From Octopus vulgaris (lineage: Eukaryota), in the NCBI GenBank assembly GCA_951406725.2, contig OX597822.1, positions 91,326,001-91,390,000 on the forward strand: a stretch of DNA of 64,000 nucleotides, in the 5' to 3' direction. Positions 753 through 64,000 of the stretch are shown here, piece by piece. The position numbers and the translations under genes are program-made. The notes below the pieces were generated by a model. That model worked only from the letters and a program-made list of their open reading frames with translations, had not been told where the DNA came from and did not search any database. The stretch's first letter is position 1; every line of letters begins with the position of its first letter.

Positions 753-1484
753 AATATTCCTTGTATTGTTTGTCTTGTACTCTGTTTTTTCGTTGTTAAA
801 AAAAGTCTGTTTCCTTGTTTGATTTTATGTTTTCGTTTCTCGTTGTGTTCTACGTTTATTTGTGGTGTACTGTACTCATATATGCATGTATATATACATA
901 TACATGTAGGTATGTACATATATGTATGTATGTATGCATATGTTTTATTTATTAAATTGTTATTATATACATATATATATATTGTATATGTATATCAAAA
1001 TATATATATACATATATTGTATATGTCTATCAATATACATATATATATAGTATATGTATATCAAAATATATATATACATATATTGTATATGTCTATCAAT
1101 ATATATATATACATATATATATATATAGTATATGTCTATCAAAATATATATATACATATATACATATATTGTATATGTCTATCAAAATATATATATACAT
1201 ATATACATATATTGTATATGTCTATCAATATATATATATATACATATATAGCTCCTAAGAGCCCATGGCAAAAATATATATACATATATACATATATTGT
1301 ATATGTCTATCAATATATATATATACATATATTGTATATGTCTATCAATATATATATATACATATATTGTATATGTCTATCAATATATATATATACATAT
1401 ATTGTATATGTCTATCAATATATATATATATACATATATACATATATTGTACATGTCTATCAATATATATATATATACATATAT

Positions 1485-2072
1485 AAAATAAATATAAGAG
1501 AGTGGTCACTATATGGCTCACTCTAGCACCAGTTAATCCAAAAGGTTTCAACCACAAAAATACATGTTTCCCATGAAAGTCAGTACGATTGTTAGCTCAC
1601 ACGGACAGGGCAAATAAAAAATAACAAAAATACAGATTATTTTGGGACAATTGTTTCGCTATTAATGAATTAAATGTAATTTTACTTACAAAAAAATCCA
1701 CTTGTAGCTCGTCAGCCAAAACTATCTGGATGAAATCCACTCAATCACACTCCAGATTTTACCATAACGATAAATACGCGTGTGGTTCAATTGATTACAT
1801 CCGACGTTATAATTCAAATGCCCCAACTAACAGTGCGCCAAACTCTCACGGAAAACAAATACTGCATTTAGAAATAAATGCAGCATAATTATAATTAATT
1901 AATAAGGGTGCCATATAGTGACCACTCTCTTATATTTATTTTGTAAAAATATTATAATATATTATAAAATATTATAATAATCCAGGTTTCTCGGAGCACT
2001 AGGCCACTTGGTGTTGAATAGATATACTATTAAATTAGTATCTAATTCTCTCACCCTTATTAATTAATTATA
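1485..2072. mobile_element. Non-autonomous Penelope-like/retrozyme-like element with two interleaved inverted repeats
   Basis: A perfect 33-bp inverted repeat (1485-1517 / 1910-1942) and a perfect 21-bp inverted repeat (1890-1910 / 2052-2072) flank an internal hammerhead. The element sits inside the TA minisatellite. Confidence 0.7.
1640..1721 (-). ncRNA. Type I hammerhead ribozyme with canonical core
   Basis: Minus strand reads TTTTGG-CTGACGA-GCTA...(long loop)...TAGC-GAAAC-AATT-GTC-CCAAAA. This gives a 6-bp stem I, the CUGANGA box, a 4-bp stem II, GAAA, palindromic stem III ACAATTGT and a GUC cleavage triplet at 1648-1646. Confidence 0.85.
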
Positions 2073-2346
2073 TACATATATACATATATTGTACATGTCT
2101 ATCAATATATATATATACATATATACATATATTGTACATGTCTATCAATATATATATATATACATATATACATATATTGTACATGTCTATCAATATATAT
2201 ATATACATATATACATATATTGTACATGTCTATCAATATATATATATATACATATATACATATATTGTACATGTCTATCAATATATATATATATATATAT
2301 ACATATATTGTACATGTCTATCAATATATATATATATATATATGAA

Positions 2347-2935: not shown

Positions 2936-4227
2936 ACCCTATTGAATATATGTATTTCAATGCAAAATGATTTCATTTTCCTTTAAGCAAAGTTATTGGA
3001 AAGGTTGACCAGTGAGTGTGATAAATTATAAGGCACAAAAAGAACATCACTCTCCCCAGACACAACTTAATAATTTAAATTCTCTGTTTGGCTTTTAATA
3101 TTAGAATAAAGTAGAAAATTTGATAAATAAAGCAGACATTTTTTACACATTCATTTTCATATTCATGAATGTGGAAATATTGTACATGATAAAAAAACAA
3201 AACAAGCTACTATAATGTGCCAGCTTAGGTAAGAAACATATAAGCTGAAAGTGTCATACTAGTAAGAGTAATGCAGTACATATGAGTTCTTAATGTACCA
3301 CACTGAACATTTAAGAAAAGTATCTGTATAAATGTTTAATTTCTACTTATGAAGTGTGAATTTAAAATCAGTATAAAATGTAAAAGGTACCTGACTCTTA
3401 ACTATTTGTTTTTTTGTACAATAATAATTATTAGTTTTAAAATTAATATAAATTATTATAGAAGAAAAAGAAAAGAAGCCAGAAGAAATATAATAAAGTG
3501 CTCTGTGGCAGAGAAAATAATGTCTATTTTTAAAACATTCTTTTTTTTCCAACAATCTAGCATAAAGTATATAATAAAAAATTTTATTTCATGGCAAAAG
3601 CATAAGGAAGAATTGGGAGCCAAAAGCATAAAGTTATATTTAGTTTTCTTTTATGCATATGTACCCTACTTCTTTTGGACCCTTTTTTTTAAACAGGTTC
3701 GACTGACTGCTGCAGAAAACCAAAAGCTAGGAATGCTACTTCAGTAGCATTAGATTACAAGAAACTAGGAATAAAATCTAACAAAAATATAATCACAATG
3801 TATGAAAAGTCAGAACCATAAAACAGGCAAAAGAATGATAGTTATATGATAATCAAGTAATATTTTGGTAACAAAAACATTGACTCCATTCTTCATACAG
3901 AACCTAAAAAGGTTTCACTATGACACAATTTAAGTGCTGATAGACTTTTTTCTTTTACTTATTTCTGTCATGATGGGGCACAGTCTTGAAAAAGTCTTGA
4001 AGATGAATTGAAAATAATGATTGCATTCTTCTTTGAATGAAATAATAGCAAATATTCAAATTAGATATTAAAATCTCAAATTACTTCCCAAAAGAGTATA
4101 GAGGTCATTTTCTAAATATTCAACAGGAACACACACAACAAAACAGTGTTCAAGCCAAAAATAATTTTGCAACTAAAATACGTAAAACTTTGTAATTTGG
4201 TATGATGTGGTTATTTTAGATGTAGAT

Positions 4228-12863: not shown

Positions 12864-13399
12864 AATCTAACTAATTGATTGTTTGTTTAACTTATTGGTT
12901 AAACAATCGTTTGTTGTTAATTGTTTTTGTTTGTCGAAGTTCTTTTCTTGCCATTTGCTACCTTTCAGTGACCTCTCCCCCAGTTCATTACGGAGGCTGT
13001 GTTTGTCTGTCTGGGACCTTGTCAGTTGTATGTGTGTAGAATATGGTGTGTGTGTGTGTGTACGCACACGCATGCATGTTGTGTGTTACTATCTGCATGC
13101 ATATGTATATAAGTTATTGTGCGTAGTTGTGTGTTTTCTTATGTCAGTATGTGCATGCCTGTGTGTGGGTGTATGTATGTGTTCTTGTGCATGTGTGTGT
13201 ATTCCTGTGCTCATGTGCATGTATGTGTGTGTGTATATGCATGTGTGTATATCATCATGTGTTCCTGTGAAATTGTGTGTGTGTGCATGTATGAGCATGT
13301 CTGTTATACTGCCTATTTACCTGCCTGTCTCCCCACCTACATAACTAAACTAACCACCTAAATACATATCTACTTATCTACCTACATACCTATTTATGT

Positions 13400-14800
13400 A
13401 CATGCCTGCCTGCCACCATGTTGGTTTGGTTTGTTGATAGATTATGGATGACTGTTTCCAGTCATTATGCTCTCTCCAGTATTCATTTAGCCTTTCCACT
13501 AAACTCCTCAGTGTCTCTCCAATGTATGCTGTGTTCCTGTTCTTACAAACTCCTTCCATGCACCATATTCTGTAGACTATATTCCTGGTCTTACAGTTAA
13601 TACTCGGGTAAAAGGTACATACCACACAACTCTTACCAGTGAATGTGGTATTGTTGAAGGGGTACATCCTATATAATTGTGATTTGATGGACCTCTCCGG
13701 TTTCTCAATGATATTAATGTTGAGTTTGGTGTCCTTCAGAGAATTCCTAAACCTATGGGCTGATTTCTCATGAGGTGTGGCCTCTACAAACATCACACCT
13801 GGATATTTATCAGCCTTGTACCATTTGTTCACTCTGTTTGCTTTGTCACAAATCCTCTGTCTCCTGTTCCAATGTTTATATTGGTATCATTACATATGAT
13901 GCTATCTAATTTCTTTCAAGCACCCCTGTATACTATCTTTCTAATCGTATCAAGAGAACTGCATGCAGTGCATGTCTCCTTGTTTCATAGGGTTTCACAT
14001 GAGGGGACACATTGTTCATTATCCTAAGTCAGCTCTTATGCTAATTTTCACATTGTGCAAGAAGGCCGAGTTCTTGTGAAGCTATGGACTTCATGTAATA
14101 GGAGAGAAGGTGTACTTTGTTGTTTACAGTCTCTAACCAAAGTTCAGTATCAAGGATAGGGAGTCTATTTGTTAGGGAGCATAGTAGGGTAAGTTAAGTT
14201 AATTTTTTGGCTCAAAAAGCAAAAAGCAAGGCCATGTAGGGGGACATGGAGTTATGTACAGGGAGGGTGTTCATGCAAAGAGTTCAGGCCATTTCTGGTC
14301 AAGAGAGACTTTGAACCGAGCGGTTGTCGGCATCTTCACTATCTCGTCCGGTAGCTTATTCCACTGATCCGCAACCCGGACGGAGAAAGCCCCTCTCCTT
14401 TGATTGAGATGAAATCGTCGCAGATAGAGCTTTTTGGAGTGACCCCGCAGCTGACGCCCTGGAGCAGGAGTGAAGAACAGCTCTTTCGAGAGGTTACATT
14501 TTCCACTTATGATGATGTGAGCGAGAATGAGATCACTACGGTGGTGGCGTTTTTCTAGAGTAATTTGTGGTTACCTTGATACTTTGGTGGATAGAGTTAA
14601 CTATGTGCTGGATGCTCACCATTGCACTCCCCTCGGCTTTCTCAGTATTGTCACATGAGGTTGTCCTAGCCAGAATATTAATACCATCTATATACCTACA
14701 GTATAGTAATACCACTACAGATTGTTCATCTAGGGATTGTCTGAGTTTTCTATCCCAACACAGAAATTCCCATGCAGTTCTCTGGATATGACCAGAAAGA
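13400..14800 (-). mobile_element. Decayed Penelope-like element (RT C-terminal half plus GIY-YIG endonuclease)
   Basis: Minus strand gives RYIDG (~14690, decayed YIDD), IKVTTNYP..LPILDTELW and YYMKS. ORF 13374-13832 contains CVVC..CKTRNIVYRIWC..YIGETLRSLVER, the GIY-YIG signature. Confidence 0.8.
14193..14559 (-). mobile_element. CR1/L2-clade LINE 3' end nested in the PLE
   Basis: Minus translation LRGHSKKLYLRRFHLNQRRGAFSVRVADQWNKLP..FKVSLD and a (TAACT)n tail. GTAA is present at both junctions (14189-14192, 14560-14563). Confidence 0.85.
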
Positions 14801-15619
14801 TGGGCTTCAAGTATACAGTGGGGCTAGAAAGAAATTAGATAACATCATATGTTATGATGTTAGTGGTACCCCTCCCCCACTATATACCAAAGTAAACATT
14901 GGAACAGGATACAGAGTAGAAGATTATAACTAAGAACATATATTATCATTATCACATTACATTCAATTCATCATACATTATTCGTTTCATTAACCATCAT
15001 CTTTTCTTTCACATTTCAGGTATACTGAAGACCTTTTTTGTCACTGCTTCAGTCTACATAAATAAAGTGTTGTTGAAAGTAAAGAGATGTCAGACTTATT
15101 TATGACAAAAGGTAAGTCAACATGGCCAACATAACCTGTCCCGCAGCTGACTGCGCCGCGAGTTGGCCTGCAAACACTCTGGTGGTGGTACTGACCCACT
15201 TCATTGATCTTCATAGCACCACTTCATAGCTGCAATATTTTTAAAGCTTCTACAATTTTTTCAAATTCATTTAAGAATATCTTATTATCCTTATGCCATC
15301 ATTTTTCCTGCTAGTCCACTGTTTTAAAAGTAACACTTTTACATTAATAAAAAACCAAAAAAACTTATTGAATCAAAATTCACAAAGTATAAAAGGTAGA
15401 ACAAAAGTGAGTTTTTTTTTCAAAAAAGTTTAAACAGCAGTAAATAAGTAAATTTTATAAACTGTTAAAAAGTAAATTATAAAATAACAATAATAATTAA
15501 GAACCTGAGACAGAAGAGAAAATGCCAATAAAGCAGATGAATTAAATGATGCTAATTACAAAACAGTACAGTGAATATGAGTCAACTAGTTTGAGGCAAA
15601 AATAATCTGAGAAATTTAA

Positions 15620-17749: not shown

Positions 17750-19620
17750 ACTACTACAAAAACCTACTACTATCCATGCTAGAAAATATTTTCGATGAAA
17801 ATGTTGTGAACTATAAACAACAAAAACAATGAAAAATCTTGCATCCTTAATGGAAAAGGCCTGACAGAAAAAGAAGTAGATTATATCATGAACTTTAAAT
17901 GTAAACCTAGTTATTTTTTTTATGGCCTACCTAAAATACACAAAAGCAAGGTAGTTAATGAAGCCTGTGAACAACCACCAGGCAAATACATAAATATCCT
18001 AGCACCAGAAGACTTAAAGTTAAGACCAATTATAGCTGGCCCAGCCTGTGAAACCCACTGCTTAAACAATTTTCTAGACATCCTACTGAAACCCTTACTG
18101 AAATACATCAAAAGTTTCATTAGAGATGGTCTAGATATGCTTGAACACCTACCAAAAACAACTAAAGAAGGCACATTATTGGTTTCTTTCTGGCAAAGTT
18201 TCTACAGCTGGATGCCCTTATTACACCAATATCCCATGTGACCTTGGAATAGAAGCAATAAAAATCTGGCTGTAAAAGTGCCCCAAAGAACTTTCAGAAC
18301 GCATAAACCAGGTTTTTATTATTGAAACTTTAAAATTTATACTTCAGAACAATTATTTCCTATTTCAGGACACCCACTATCGTTAAAAATGTTGAATTGT
18401 GATGGGAACAAAAATAGCTCCTGTTCTTGTGAACCTTCTAATGGAATATTTTGAATTCACCATATATGAAGTGTCACTGCAAAAAATAGACATCCATTTC
18501 ACTAGTGTATAAGAGAAAGCTAGAAGAGATATCTGGATGACAGCTTTATCATTTGGAATGAGACCATTGATGAACTTTTGGAATTTAAAATATAAACCCT
18601 AACATTCAATTCACAATGGAATATAGCAAAGAACAGCTTCCTTTCTTAGATATTATGATAAAAAGAAGTCAATAACCAAATTGTAACTGACATTTATCAT
18701 AAAACAACAGACTTGAAACAATATCTTCTTTTTAGCTCATGCCACCCGAACAAATCAAAAGAGAAGAGGGATTTGCAAATAAGGATTTAGCAAAAAGGGA
18801 TTTGCATAATAGTGTCTGATAGAAATACCTGGGACCTCCATCATCAAGACCTCAGAACAACACTGAGGCAATACCCACCCTCACTTATAGATGACAGAAT
18901 TAAGCAAGCCAAGAAAGTACGCATTAAAACACTAAGGGAAACAAAATCTAACACCACACCACATCTCAGAACACTACCGCATATATCAACTCGCAACCCT
19001 AGAAACAATGAGGCATACAACACTATTGTACAAAATCTACCTATGCTTACTAGGGACCAAAAAATGAACAACATTCTGAAAACATATAAACGACTTCTGG
19101 CAAGTGCAAAGCTTTACTTAACAACCACGAAACCAATGGTTAAAAATGTGGATGCCCAAACTGTGGAACATGCCCCAACCTATTGGAAAGCTTGGATTTC
19201 CTATTCAAGCAAGGAGAGAGGTCCATGATTAAACCAACTTCACTTGTACTTCCAAGAATCTAATTTGTTATAACTTGTTCAGGTTGTGGACATAACTATA
19301 CCAGACAGACAAGTATGGCACTTAGATCCATTAACATAAGGAACAAATCTGTTTGCCACAGGACAGACATATTCCTTTGAGTGAACACAGAGAGATGTGC
19401 AGGTAATATCCAACCAAACTTCAGTTTTCCCCATCTACCAGTGCAAAGAAACTATTTCTGTACAAGACCGTTTAAATAACGAAAATTTATCCATCAAATA
19501 ATACAGATCACGCCTAAATATTAACACATAACCAACTTTGGTTTCAGTATATATTTTAATTCATGTTCACATACCCATCACTGTAAATAATTCATCTTTT
19601 GAGTTTTTGTATATTTATTT
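17750..19620 (+). mobile_element. Decayed Penelope-like element (RT plus GIY-YIG)
   Basis: YGLPKIHK and LRPIIAG (ORF 17888-18241), MGT, KRYLDD (~18525), FTME..LPFLDI, DIYHKT, FSSCHP, then the Cys-rich GIY-YIG region (C..PNCGTC, FTCTSKNL..CSGCG). Multiple stops and frameshifts. Confidence 0.88.
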
Positions 19621-55910: not shown

Positions 55911-56987
55911 ATGCCAACAACAAATAAAGAATGTTTCACAAATGTACATGTCATCTTTGTGCAGGGGCCAGGATAATCTGTGTATTAATCCAATTTTAAT
56001 ATATGTGGATTGCAATGTGAAGAAATTTACTTTAATATATTTTGTATAGTAAGACATTATACTCCAAGAAAACTGGTGATGTTCTGCATCATTAAAAAAT
56101 ATACAAATATTTCAAACAATAGAACAAGAATTATATAATTTCTAACAATGTGTTTTTGTTTTTTATATGTTTTACTGAAATATCTAACAAAATTAATTAT
56201 AGAATACTGAATCAAGTATTGGTATGATTGATTAAATGTATATTGAAATATTATATCTGGACCCCCAAAGAGTTACCAGAATGAAATTGTAAAACAATGA
56301 GACAAGGCAAAGAAAAACTTTTCTGTATGAATCCCATGGAAAAATGGATGCTAACTTGAAAATAATTAAGTTGATAATTATAAATCCATTTGAACTCTGT
56401 ATTTCTTGCTTAAGATACCTTAATTCAATCAAAGATAAGTATATAATTTCTTGATATTTCTCAAAAGAAATCTTTAAAAAAATTTTTTAAATAAATAATA
56501 TTGGTAATCATTACATTTTAAAATCACATTGACAGACAATTAGATAATTGTACATGTAATTTTAATCATGAATTAATAAACTTCTTAAAATGTTGCAAAA
56601 CCTTAAAAATCATTTTTTTTCAAATCCAAACTAATACTGAATGAAGAAGATTCTAAGACAACTTCTCTAATATTAATGCTGGTATTGTTGTCACAATAAC
56701 TTACCCTACTCATTCCATTAGAGTAGTTGGTAACAGGAAGAAAACATTTTCTAACAGCTATGAAAACTTCACTTTCATAAGAAAGTAATTCCTTTAAAAT
56801 GTTACATATGCAATGTATTGTTATTTGCTTTATGTACCTATGTTTACTCCCTTGAAGATGTAGCTTTAATTGATTTGATGCCTTACTTTTCAAAGATTAA
56901 TGAATAAGGCCATTCCTTAACTGAATAGCACTTTTGGAATTATGACAATGAGACACTGATATACATATTACTTAAGATAATTTACAT

Positions 56988-57600: not shown

Positions 57601-58049
<449 letters not shown>

Positions 58050-61708: not shown

Positions 61709-64000
61709 TCTTAGTGCTGACCATCATCCAACATTTTCTTCCCCAGATGCAACATGCAGCATTCTTCTTTTCCCGTTCTTAGCAGTGATGTCCATCTCTG
61801 CTTTGCTCAGGTGGAAGCTTACTTCGCGGTAAGCAATGTTCGGTCAAGCCTGCAGCAACTAAACATTCAGCTCAGCGCCATTTCTGTTGCCTTAACCACT
61901 CAACGCAAGGATGTAATAACTGACACACCACATGACGCAATTTATGCATCCATAAAGTGCGAAGTCCTTTACAGGGCATCTCTATTGGCTAAGCACTGTT
62001 TCCAGACCCTGGTACACGATGAACATTTGAATGACAGAAAGCCCACGGAATTGCTTTATCGTATTTGCAACCTCACACACGAGTCCCCTGAAGACAGCTT
62101 GCTTCTAAAACAGCTATTCTTCTTGCACCTACCCTCACATGTTCAGGCAATTTTGGAGCCCATGATTGAAGGAAGTTCAGTTGAACAAATCGCAAATTCA
62201 GCTGATAAAATCATGGAATTTTCCAGAAATCTGTCTGTAGCAGACAGTTGTTACTGCAACTGCTTCATCAATGGCTACAGCTCCAGTCGACAGCAGCTCT
62301 ACCCAGTCCGCAACTTTAGAAGTCATTTTAAACCCGACGAAGCTTCCAGCATCGCAGTCATTCAACCAGTCGTGGCTGGCGTTCTTTGTCACTCGCTTCA
62401 CCAAATGGTTCTTGTAGGTACCATGACTATTTTGGCGTGAAGGCACAGAAATGCCTTCCACCATGTTCTTGTGAATGCCAGGAAAACTAACCAAGGAGAC
62501 CCTGAGCACATCAGCAACTCCTGCTACCTCTAATCATGCATTTTTGTGCTAGACCGCAACTTACACAAGAATTTTATGGTCGACACAAGCGCTTCATGTA
62601 TCATCTGGCCGGTAAAGTTCGTGATGAGTAAGCCTGTTCTCTCTCGGATTTCTCTGCTAGCTGTCAACCATTCTCCTATCAACACATTTGGGCAGATATC
62701 TCTCTCCTTGGATTTGGCACACTGGAGGGACTTTAAATGGATTTTTGTAATTGCAGACCTATCCTATCTTATTCTCAGGGCAGATTTCCTCCACCACTTC
62801 TCCCTGTTGGTGGATATTCACCACAGCATTTGTTGGATAGCTCAATGCAGTTATCAGCTCCTGGTTGTCCAGCAGCCACCCTTGTAAGTCCGGTATATTT
62901 TAGTGCAGTATCCGGTGATACATACTATTCTCTTCTCAACTTTTTCCTGGAGCTTACTGATTTAACCTTCAACATCACTGATCTTGTACATTCAACAAGG
63001 CACCAGTGTTTGCTCATCCTTGCCATCTTCCTCCTGATAAACTCAAGGCTGCAAAAGTGGAATTCGATCACATGTTCCAGCTGGGGCTTATTCATCCTTC
63101 TACTAGCCCCTGGTCTTCCCCTCTCTTTTTAGTTACCAAAGGAAATACTAATTTCTAACCAGTTGGTGATTATCGAAGATAAAATACTATTACAACCCCG
63201 GACAGATACCCTATTCCACACCTGCAGGACTTCTACCTTGCACAGTAGCACTTTTTTCTAAGGTTGATCTTATCCGGGCATATCACTAGATTCCTTTAAA
63301 TCCAGACAATATAACCAAAGACTGCCATTACTACTCCTTTTGATACATTTGAATTCCTTTCAATGCATTTTGATTTGCAGAACACAGCAAGCACCTTTCT
63401 TTATAGACGAGGTCATTCACAGTCTCAACTTCATCTCCGTTGATGACTTACAAATTCTATGAAAGAAGAGCATGTTTACCACTCAACGCTCCTTTTTCAA
63501 CATTTAAATGATTATTGAGTTAAAATCAACCTGGTGAAGTGTGTTTAGTTCTGCATCGCTGGAACTTTTAGGCTACATCATTGATCATGATGGAATTCGT
63601 CTTCTCCCAGGCAATTTGGAAGCTTCCTCCTCCATTTTCTTTTAAACAGCTTCATTGTTTCTTCAGTTTGCTCAATTTTTATCATCGATTCATCCCAAAT
63701 TGTGCAGAAAAATGGAGTTCACTTGCAGCATTATTGAAGGATTGTAAGAAAAAGTACGAAGTTATTCCCTTTCACCATCACTTGCTGCTGATTTTCAGAC
63801 TGTCAAACAGGTCCTGGCCAAAGTTTCAATGTTAGTACCCCGCAAAATCTGATGCAAAGTTCTCGCTTGTGGTAGATGCATTGGATGTGGCTCTGAGTGC
63901 AGTATTACAGCAAGCTGACCAAGAAATTCTGCAACCACTGGGATTTCATTCCTGCTAGCTCAAGCCCACAGAGATGCGCTATAGTGTTTAGAAGAGAATT
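61190..64000 (+). mobile_element. Decayed Ty3/Gypsy LTR retrotransposon (CsRN1-like): gag, protease, RT, RNase H; runs off the window
   Basis: Gag CFAQVEAYF and LNDRKPTELL with CHCC knuckle CRYHDYFGVKAQKCLPPC (~62414-62467). Protease FMVDTSAS and ILRADFL. RT SPWSSPL, GDYR, DRYPIP, FSKVDL, KTAITTPF, VDDL. RNase H LVVDALDVALSAVLQQ and PTEMRYS. Many stops and frameshifts. Confidence 0.93.

Follow-up and report, generated by a model that had tools for sequence, protein, structure and literature searches.

The 588-bp insert that interrupts an AT-rich minisatellite in an intron of Octopus vulgaris par-3 belongs to a young, non-coding family of non-LTR retrozymes, an already known class, in which a 535-nt unit with a type I hammerhead is repeated in tandem. 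Two-armed inserts of this family with intact ends obey a simple rule, with one arm terminating at a short fixed site (S) and the other at a long one (L). We consider it likely that these head-to-head arms of a young non-coding retrozyme, with their two fixed sites, were generated by a Penelope-like reverse transcriptase (RT)-endonuclease that primed a single RNA, probably a circle, from both ends of a staggered break. The insert is found in a stretch of 64,000 nucleotides (assembly GCA_951406725.2, contig OX597822.1, positions 91,326,001 to 91,390,000, forward strand), referred to below as the window, and the relevant features are listed in Table 1.

Table 1. Features of the window and of related elements in the same genome (window positions unless a locus is named)
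Feature	Location	Strand	Remarks
AT-rich host minisatellite	960..2330		35-45-nt units with (TA)n runs; broken by insertion
Left target-site duplication, 14 bp	1472..1485	+	last base common to S end
S arm	1485..1910	-	unit 1-426 in ribozyme sense; left-facing 3' end at unit 426, the short fixed site; 3 mismatches to natural L017 unit
L arm	1910..2072	+	unit 394-535 followed by 1-21; right-facing 3' end at unit 21, the long fixed site, 130 nt downstream of S; lacks a hammerhead; 0 mismatches to natural tandem
Right target-site duplication, 14 bp	2069..2082	+	first 4 bases common to L end
Repeat A, 33 bp	1485..1517, partner 1910-1942		S-arm 3' end overlapping L-arm 5' end
Repeat B, 21 bp	1890..1910, partner 2052-2072		S-arm 5' end overlapping L-arm 3' end
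Type I hammerhead	1633..1728	-	stem I 1728-1716/1645-1633; core 1715-1709 and 1657-1654; extended helix II; 2-bp palindromic stem III; predicted cleavage 3' of 1646
Decayed Penelope-like fragments	13377-14823	-	par-3 intron
	18791-19225	+	par-3 intron
	3005-3065		par-3 intron
U6 snRNA-like copy	55920-56015	-	par-3 intron 1; Rfam 55.4 bits; several changes; probably a pseudogene
par-3 first coding exon	57607..57735	-	PF12053 positions 1-43
Decayed gag/pol-like frames	61721-63832	+	upstream of par-3; which we take to be an LTR retrotransposon
Linear ~250-nt hammerhead repeat	L111 1885-2135; L113-L124		1767 candidates; fixed 5' end; head-to-head arms ending at 181 and 251
Intact Penelope-like family, young	L127 2763-6698	+	copies L125-L138; 4.58-kb unit; 88 scored copies at 98-100% identity; minimal hammerhead variant
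Second intact Penelope-like family	L177-L192		781-aa RT/GIY-YIG frame; hammerhead-like motif with U and A at core positions 3 and 8; ends ~30 nt apart

A first-pass annotation of this DNA had noted two inverted repeat pairs, A and B, and had joined the segments between them into a 535-nt unit that it took to be a young, non-coding retroelement of the retrozyme kind. The sequence confirms both pairs as perfect, and the predicted unit exists, as a natural tandem (L017) with a 535/535 period to which both window segments align (Table 1). The search for tandem copies that had been proposed along with it recovers natural arrays that reach 15 full units in one arm. Repeats A and B are themselves incidental and have no special status. 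As functional repeats or RT collision points they were rejected, arm stops within 40 nt of the two sites (6/60 and 6/62) being unenriched over expectation (4.6 and 4.8), and since 5' stops favor neither S nor L nor the cleavage site, the overlaps of head-to-head arms seen here as A and B are due to chance.

The complete hammerhead core with a GUC site and a palindromic stem III, described at first pass on the minus strand, is borne out by sequence and folds: CUGACGA (1715-1709), a stem II of 4 bp, GAAA (1657-1654) and GUC (1648-1646) are all in place, stem III consists of 2 bp closing a palindromic AAUU loop, and stem I of 13 bp with one mismatch. Positions 1630-1731 fold with -28.3 kcal/mol (z -4.6), a value equaled in 0/200 shuffles. 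What had been called an unusually long, AT-rich loop II of ~45 nt measures 43 nt, and in the predicted fold it forms an extended helix with bulges instead of an open loop, which may be the cause of the failure of an Rfam search to report the window hammerhead at E<=1. With the core forced open the energy is -22.7 kcal/mol, so that the active fold is 5.6 kcal/mol less stable than the core-mispaired one, and the lone ribozyme of the window is predicted to be slow. In the available text of PMC4209133, hammerheads with a short palindromic stem III are reported to need a second copy for efficient cleavage.

Exon 2 of par-3, recognized by its PF12053 match, lies ~7.3 kb to the left of the window, and both exons translate and have splice sites, confirming that the gene is on the minus strand and that the ribozyme is sense to it, as had been claimed. 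The element is located in the ~65-kb intron that separates the first two coding exons, ~8.9 kb upstream of the acceptor of exon 2. Its sense position would permit the cutting of the nascent intron envisaged at first pass; efficient cutting is unlikely because there is one hammerhead with a weak stem III, in a sequence whose active fold is predicted to be disfavored, and the effect on par-3 is probably small. A single hammerhead releases no monomer, and the 588-bp copy is probably a dead end. The same intron holds the decayed Penelope-like fragments and the U6-like copy of Table 1.

A search of the genome (2.8 Gb, 227 contigs) gave 267 matches in the 40 best of 1148 candidates, many of them at 535-bp spacing. 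Exact termini number 922 for L versus 476 for S, so that from at least 922 termini the family comprises at least 900 copies; exact hammerhead 24-mers were counted 211 and 206 times for two variants of core position 7. The unit has a GC content of 32% and its longest ATG frame encodes 52 aa, terminal direct repeats (LTRs) were not found in the mapped loci, and identity among copies is 94-100%, with 115 unit-specific changes in 69,424 multiply covered bases. Since such changes are few and identity is high, the burst is young, in keeping with the first-pass view of the element. Candidate autonomous elements were considered and rejected. S/L pairs 7-9 kb apart enclose arrays of 12-16 units and not ORFs, and the unit is not itself an autonomous Penelope-like element, having no ORF with RT and GIY-YIG domains. 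Loci L073-L075 (C6, 669-703 kb), in which a LINE cuts the insert just after hammerhead stem I, are one insert present three times by segmental duplication, once with an extra unit; the idea that they connect the unit, at the cleavage site, with an autonomous partner was discarded, the RT ORF of the LINE running in the opposite direction.

The organization of the arms was established in unit coordinates for 78 distinct loci, which remained once 10 overlapping extracts and 2 segmental duplicates had been removed. Arms join 5'-to-5' in the mapped loci and never tail-to-tail, and their 3' ends lie at unit 426 (S) or unit 21 (L, a further 130 nt), followed by (TA)n. Two arms are present in 52 inserts, of which 45 combine S with L, while one end is damaged or cut off in the other 7; S+S and L+L combinations are absent, and the remaining 26 loci are one-armed. 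When only the 53 loci chosen solely by a hammerhead match are considered, 31 of 34 two-armed inserts are S+L, and complete lists of termini for contig C1 (35 S and 78 L ends) yield 17 head-to-head S/L pairs, 0 S/S and 0 L/L. An enlarged tally of 98 loci, to which 13 of the 20 additional loci were brought in as S/L pairs, contains 61 S+L, 7 damaged and 30 one-armed (~30%) inserts. Every two-armed insert with intact ends in these sets has one short and one long end. The share of one-armed inserts and the excess of exact L over exact S ends speak against priming at both ends.

The family displays an inverted 5' copy, two alternative 3' ends (a tail) and a microsatellite target. Both ends of the insert abut (TA)n with 3' ends facing outward and a duplication at the flanks, which is 14-15 bp long at L001, L030, L038 and L070, as well as at L008, L010 and L065. 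A 14-bp flank match is seen in 6/15 informative loci versus a mean of 2.3 for shuffled flanks. Of 13 loci with interrupted flanks, 4 match at 14-15 bp, 6 are blurred by stutters at S, 2 are unmatched and 1 has an incomplete flank. Stutters of this kind, in which the terminal AT-rich motif is briefly repeated, occur at the S end of L006, L009, L026, L028, L032, L043, L049, L057, L070 and L089 and suggest slippage or re-priming at the initiation of reverse transcription.

This geometry bears on whether one primer could have sufficed, that is, whether a single cDNA acquired its inverted arm by fold-back or template switching and its second fixed end by endonuclease processing. One-armed inserts are common, short templated duplications or a palindromic overlap are present at some junctions (L006, L009, L031), and the available text of PMC8557442 ascribes the tail of Penelope-like elements to endonuclease resolution. 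A single primer nevertheless sits poorly with two outward-facing 3' ends that both abut (TA)n with the duplication between them, and with the freedom of the arms, either of which can be the longer one and which both exceed one unit in 13 loci. Junction positions are, moreover, unrelated between arms, with an overlap of 0-2 nt in 31/52 inserts, and two RT start sites have been mapped in vitro (PMC11167929, available text). We regard a one-primer origin as very unlikely. Of the first-pass proposal on inverted copying, the Penelope-type inversion stands, while a single cDNA with an inverted 5' segment gives way to two arms, each with its own fixed 3' site.

Helitron-derived repeats can likewise contain tandem arrays and inverted segments, so that a DNA-level element, a Helitron-like rolling circle or an extrachromosomal-circle satellite that merely contains a hammerhead, was also considered. 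We judge it extremely improbable, since 3' ends are fixed where 5' ends are random, targets are duplicated, RT-coding Penelope-like families of this genome are built in the same way and the hammerhead core, ignoring the freely varying position 7, is intact in 147/154 units. Priming at two ends by a Penelope-like protein is the preferred reading.

At six polymorphic sites the haplotypes of the two arms were compared, and 0 disagreements were found in 144 site-by-locus comparisons, where ~44 would be expected from two random templates (the sites are linked). Because arms never disagree they come from one molecule or one source. Shared variants are fixed in all units of the insert in 52/55 cases. 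As many as 103/123 arms cross the cleavage site and 66 arms exceed one unit, 161/163 units have no scar at that site, and arms do not stop there. Eight arrays differ from one another by 3-21 fixed differences and contain 0-12 singletons and 0-3 partial variants internally; in L159 14/15 units are identical. For 33 loci, 59 variants are specific to one arm at the same template unit versus 4 that are common to both arms, 1 of them unambiguously. Near-uniform arrays and rare in-register inheritance argue for a circle, from which one unit is amplified again and again and which we take to be roughly twice as probable as an uncleaved multimer.

The latter possibility accepts twin priming by a Penelope-like protein and makes the template an uncleaved linear multimeric transcript of a long array, with arrays homogenized and re-lengthened after insertion by unequal crossover and gene conversion. 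Several observations fit it. At L154 one variant is found in the 3'-most unit of both arms, in register, and is absent from deeper units, as a heterogeneous multimeric template predicts; partial, periodic variants are present in the long arrays of L054, L157 and L158; and unit number differs among segmental duplicates, L074 having one unit more than L073 and L075. Arrays of 12-15 units exist as possible sources, the active fold of a monomer is disfavored, and insertion in vitro did not require the hammerhead to cleave (PMC11167929, available text). Against it, inherited unit heterogeneity is rare, with the 1 clear case and at most 4 set against 59 arm-specific changes; the 6 of 115 singletons that are seen in two loci lie mostly on different haplotypes and are plausibly chance; many changes that distinguish arrays are fixed in every unit of both arms; and truncation would shorten the arrays each generation unless there are many long masters. 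On balance we think an uncleaved multimer unlikely, though it deserves serious attention. The variant patterns of L158, L054 and L157 have periods of 2, 4 or 5, those of L158 being common to the inverted arms in a different order, and represent higher-order repeats formed after insertion or else multimeric circles. From these patterns and the extra unit of L074 it follows that arrays have also been reshaped after insertion. Fixed variants that appeared private to a locus (11 loci in a first count) were initially taken as proof of a circle and have been downgraded, as the count was inflated and several mark a subfamily of 206 units that the sample nearly missed.

Returning to the circle, the following sequence of events would account for the inserts. 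An arm with at least two complete hammerheads, of the kind present in 25/78 loci, would be transcribed and would cleave itself as a double hammerhead, the monomer then being ligated to a circle. A Penelope-like protein, probably a dimer, would hold the RNA at S and L and cut both (TA)n strands ~14 nt apart, each 3' overhang would prime cDNA at one of the sites, and the RT would run around the template with strand displacement. Arm length would be random (median ~600 nt, up to 8 kb), and the two cDNA ends would finally be joined with 0-2 nt of microhomology. We lean, with only slightly more confidence than doubt, to the fuller statement that the genome records double-primed rolling-circle reverse transcription, in which one Penelope-like dimer would bind one ribozyme-made circle at two sites, with each of its subunits copying up to 15 turns onto one end of a break staggered by 14 nt. 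Biochemistry in the available text of PMC11167929 describes a Penelope-like protein that cuts and extends both strands, initiates reverse transcription internally at two positions and, by prediction, forms a dimer; in the same experiments uncleaved RNA is the main substrate and the start site shows no difference between strands.

Protein queries and the PF01541 profile were used to search for a partner, leading to two intact Penelope-like families, both with two ends beside (TA)n. Members of the first have ORFs of 1310-1312 aa at 98-99% identity, and their termini lie 56 nt apart inside the start of the ORF at (TA)n targets, a short one pairing with a long one in the 8 loci that display both. 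Pfam assigned 0 families to the whole 1312-aa ORF and RVT_1 at E 0.009 to its C-terminal part, and a PDB search produced nothing relevant. The 3' region of the second, 781-aa family carries repeated boxes that we presume to be CCAAT- and CRE-like. When ~45 loci from four to five Penelope-like families were compared with the unit by BLASTN, AT-rich low-complexity matches were the only result, and other families may be unsampled; the similarity to the pseudo-LTR of an autonomous partner that marks non-autonomous Penelope-like elements was absent in the families sampled.

A second repeat with a similar hammerhead, linear and ~250 nt long, follows the same pairing of ends, which are 70 nt apart, and has an inverted arm in 34 of its 40 best loci. 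All 34 inverted arms end at 177-192 and none at 251, the main arms having been selected by the query. The 12 loci that were read share a common 5' stop, none is tandem and none extends beyond one unit, as a linear template predicts. This repeat is a SINE-like dependent of Penelope-like elements.

Sequencing data offer some leads at the level of RNA. Runs under eight organism labels contain 78-100% of the words of the unit, none of those listed being on record as RNA. In contigs of run X8, which is RNA by guess, bears another organism's label and has no matched DNA, 14/17 differences are A>G on the ribozyme-sense strand versus 28/165 in genomic copies, a skew that fits editing of the sense transcript and that we offer as a lead only. 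A>G changes also account for 15/50 fixed variants versus 13/115 singletons (p 0.006, one of several tests, with polarity relative to one unit), which is a weak lead. One contig of 565 nt in run X5, one unit plus 30, fits a circle or tandem DNA equally; junction reads are uninformative about a circle because tandem DNA gives the same junctions. A DNA run with the same label as the best-matching run, X23, has 1 read of 12.9 million, a near-absence that may reflect another lineage or a read filter, and the list of runs may reflect close relatives, mislabels or patchy presence.

The family resembles non-LTR retrozymes, as described in the available texts of PMC7229834 and bioRxiv 10.64898/2026.07.22.740005, in its dispersed tandem repeats with one type I hammerhead per unit, the GC content of 32%, the lack of an ORF and of LTRs, a duplication of >4 bp and the presence of Penelope-like elements in the same genome. 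It differs from them in the length of its unit, which exceeds the ~170-400 nt of the RNAs tested, in its extended helix II and in the absence of any homology found to the pseudo-LTR of a Penelope element. Those texts, as available, describe no inverted two-armed inserts, paired fixed termini or microsatellite targeting ('inverted' occurs 0 times in PMC7229834 and in 1 reference title in bioRxiv 10.64898/2026.07.22.740005). A circular RNA is proposed there as the template of tandem retrozyme cDNA. With Penelope-like elements (PMC8557442, PMC11167929 and PMC4209133, available texts) it shares the head-to-head inverted copy, a tail at one end, two internal starts, AT-rich or (TA)n targets and a hammerhead that lies upstream of the ends and has a palindromic stem III; by contrast it is non-coding, its tail is 130 nt versus 30-40 nt, its arms can be multimers, and strict pairing and the 14-bp duplication can be counted. 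PMC4209133, in the text available, proposes circular templates for copying of more than a unit and notes pairs of hammerheads on opposite strands.

In twin priming of L1, two target primers use one RNA and create an inversion with microhomology at the junction. The octopus family, in contrast, is primed at fixed internal sites without poly(A), and its arms overlap by up to many units whereas those of L1 meet end to end. Neither this family nor the pairing rule was found in the freely accessible literature on Penelope twin priming, cephalopod hammerheads and rolling-circle retrotransposition; supplements of the papers cited may already show tail pairing or inverted retrozyme copies.

How tandem and inverted Penelope inserts are made is called undefined in the available text of PMC8557442, and copying of retrozymes from circles by Penelope-like elements is put forward as a hypothesis in those of PMC7229834 and PMC4209133. 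Some 900 young, countable inserts now supply a rule, one short and one long end, one template and a duplication of ~14 bp, and the two-armed, end-paired pattern makes the proposed copying of circles testable. As the genome also provides a natural substrate of 535 nt and two candidate enzymes that are intact, both questions come within reach of in vitro experiments. If true, double-primed copying of a circle would explain both the tail-plus-inversion of Penelope-like elements and the tandem arrays of retrozymes, and the octopus genome may have recorded A-to-I editing of the circle.
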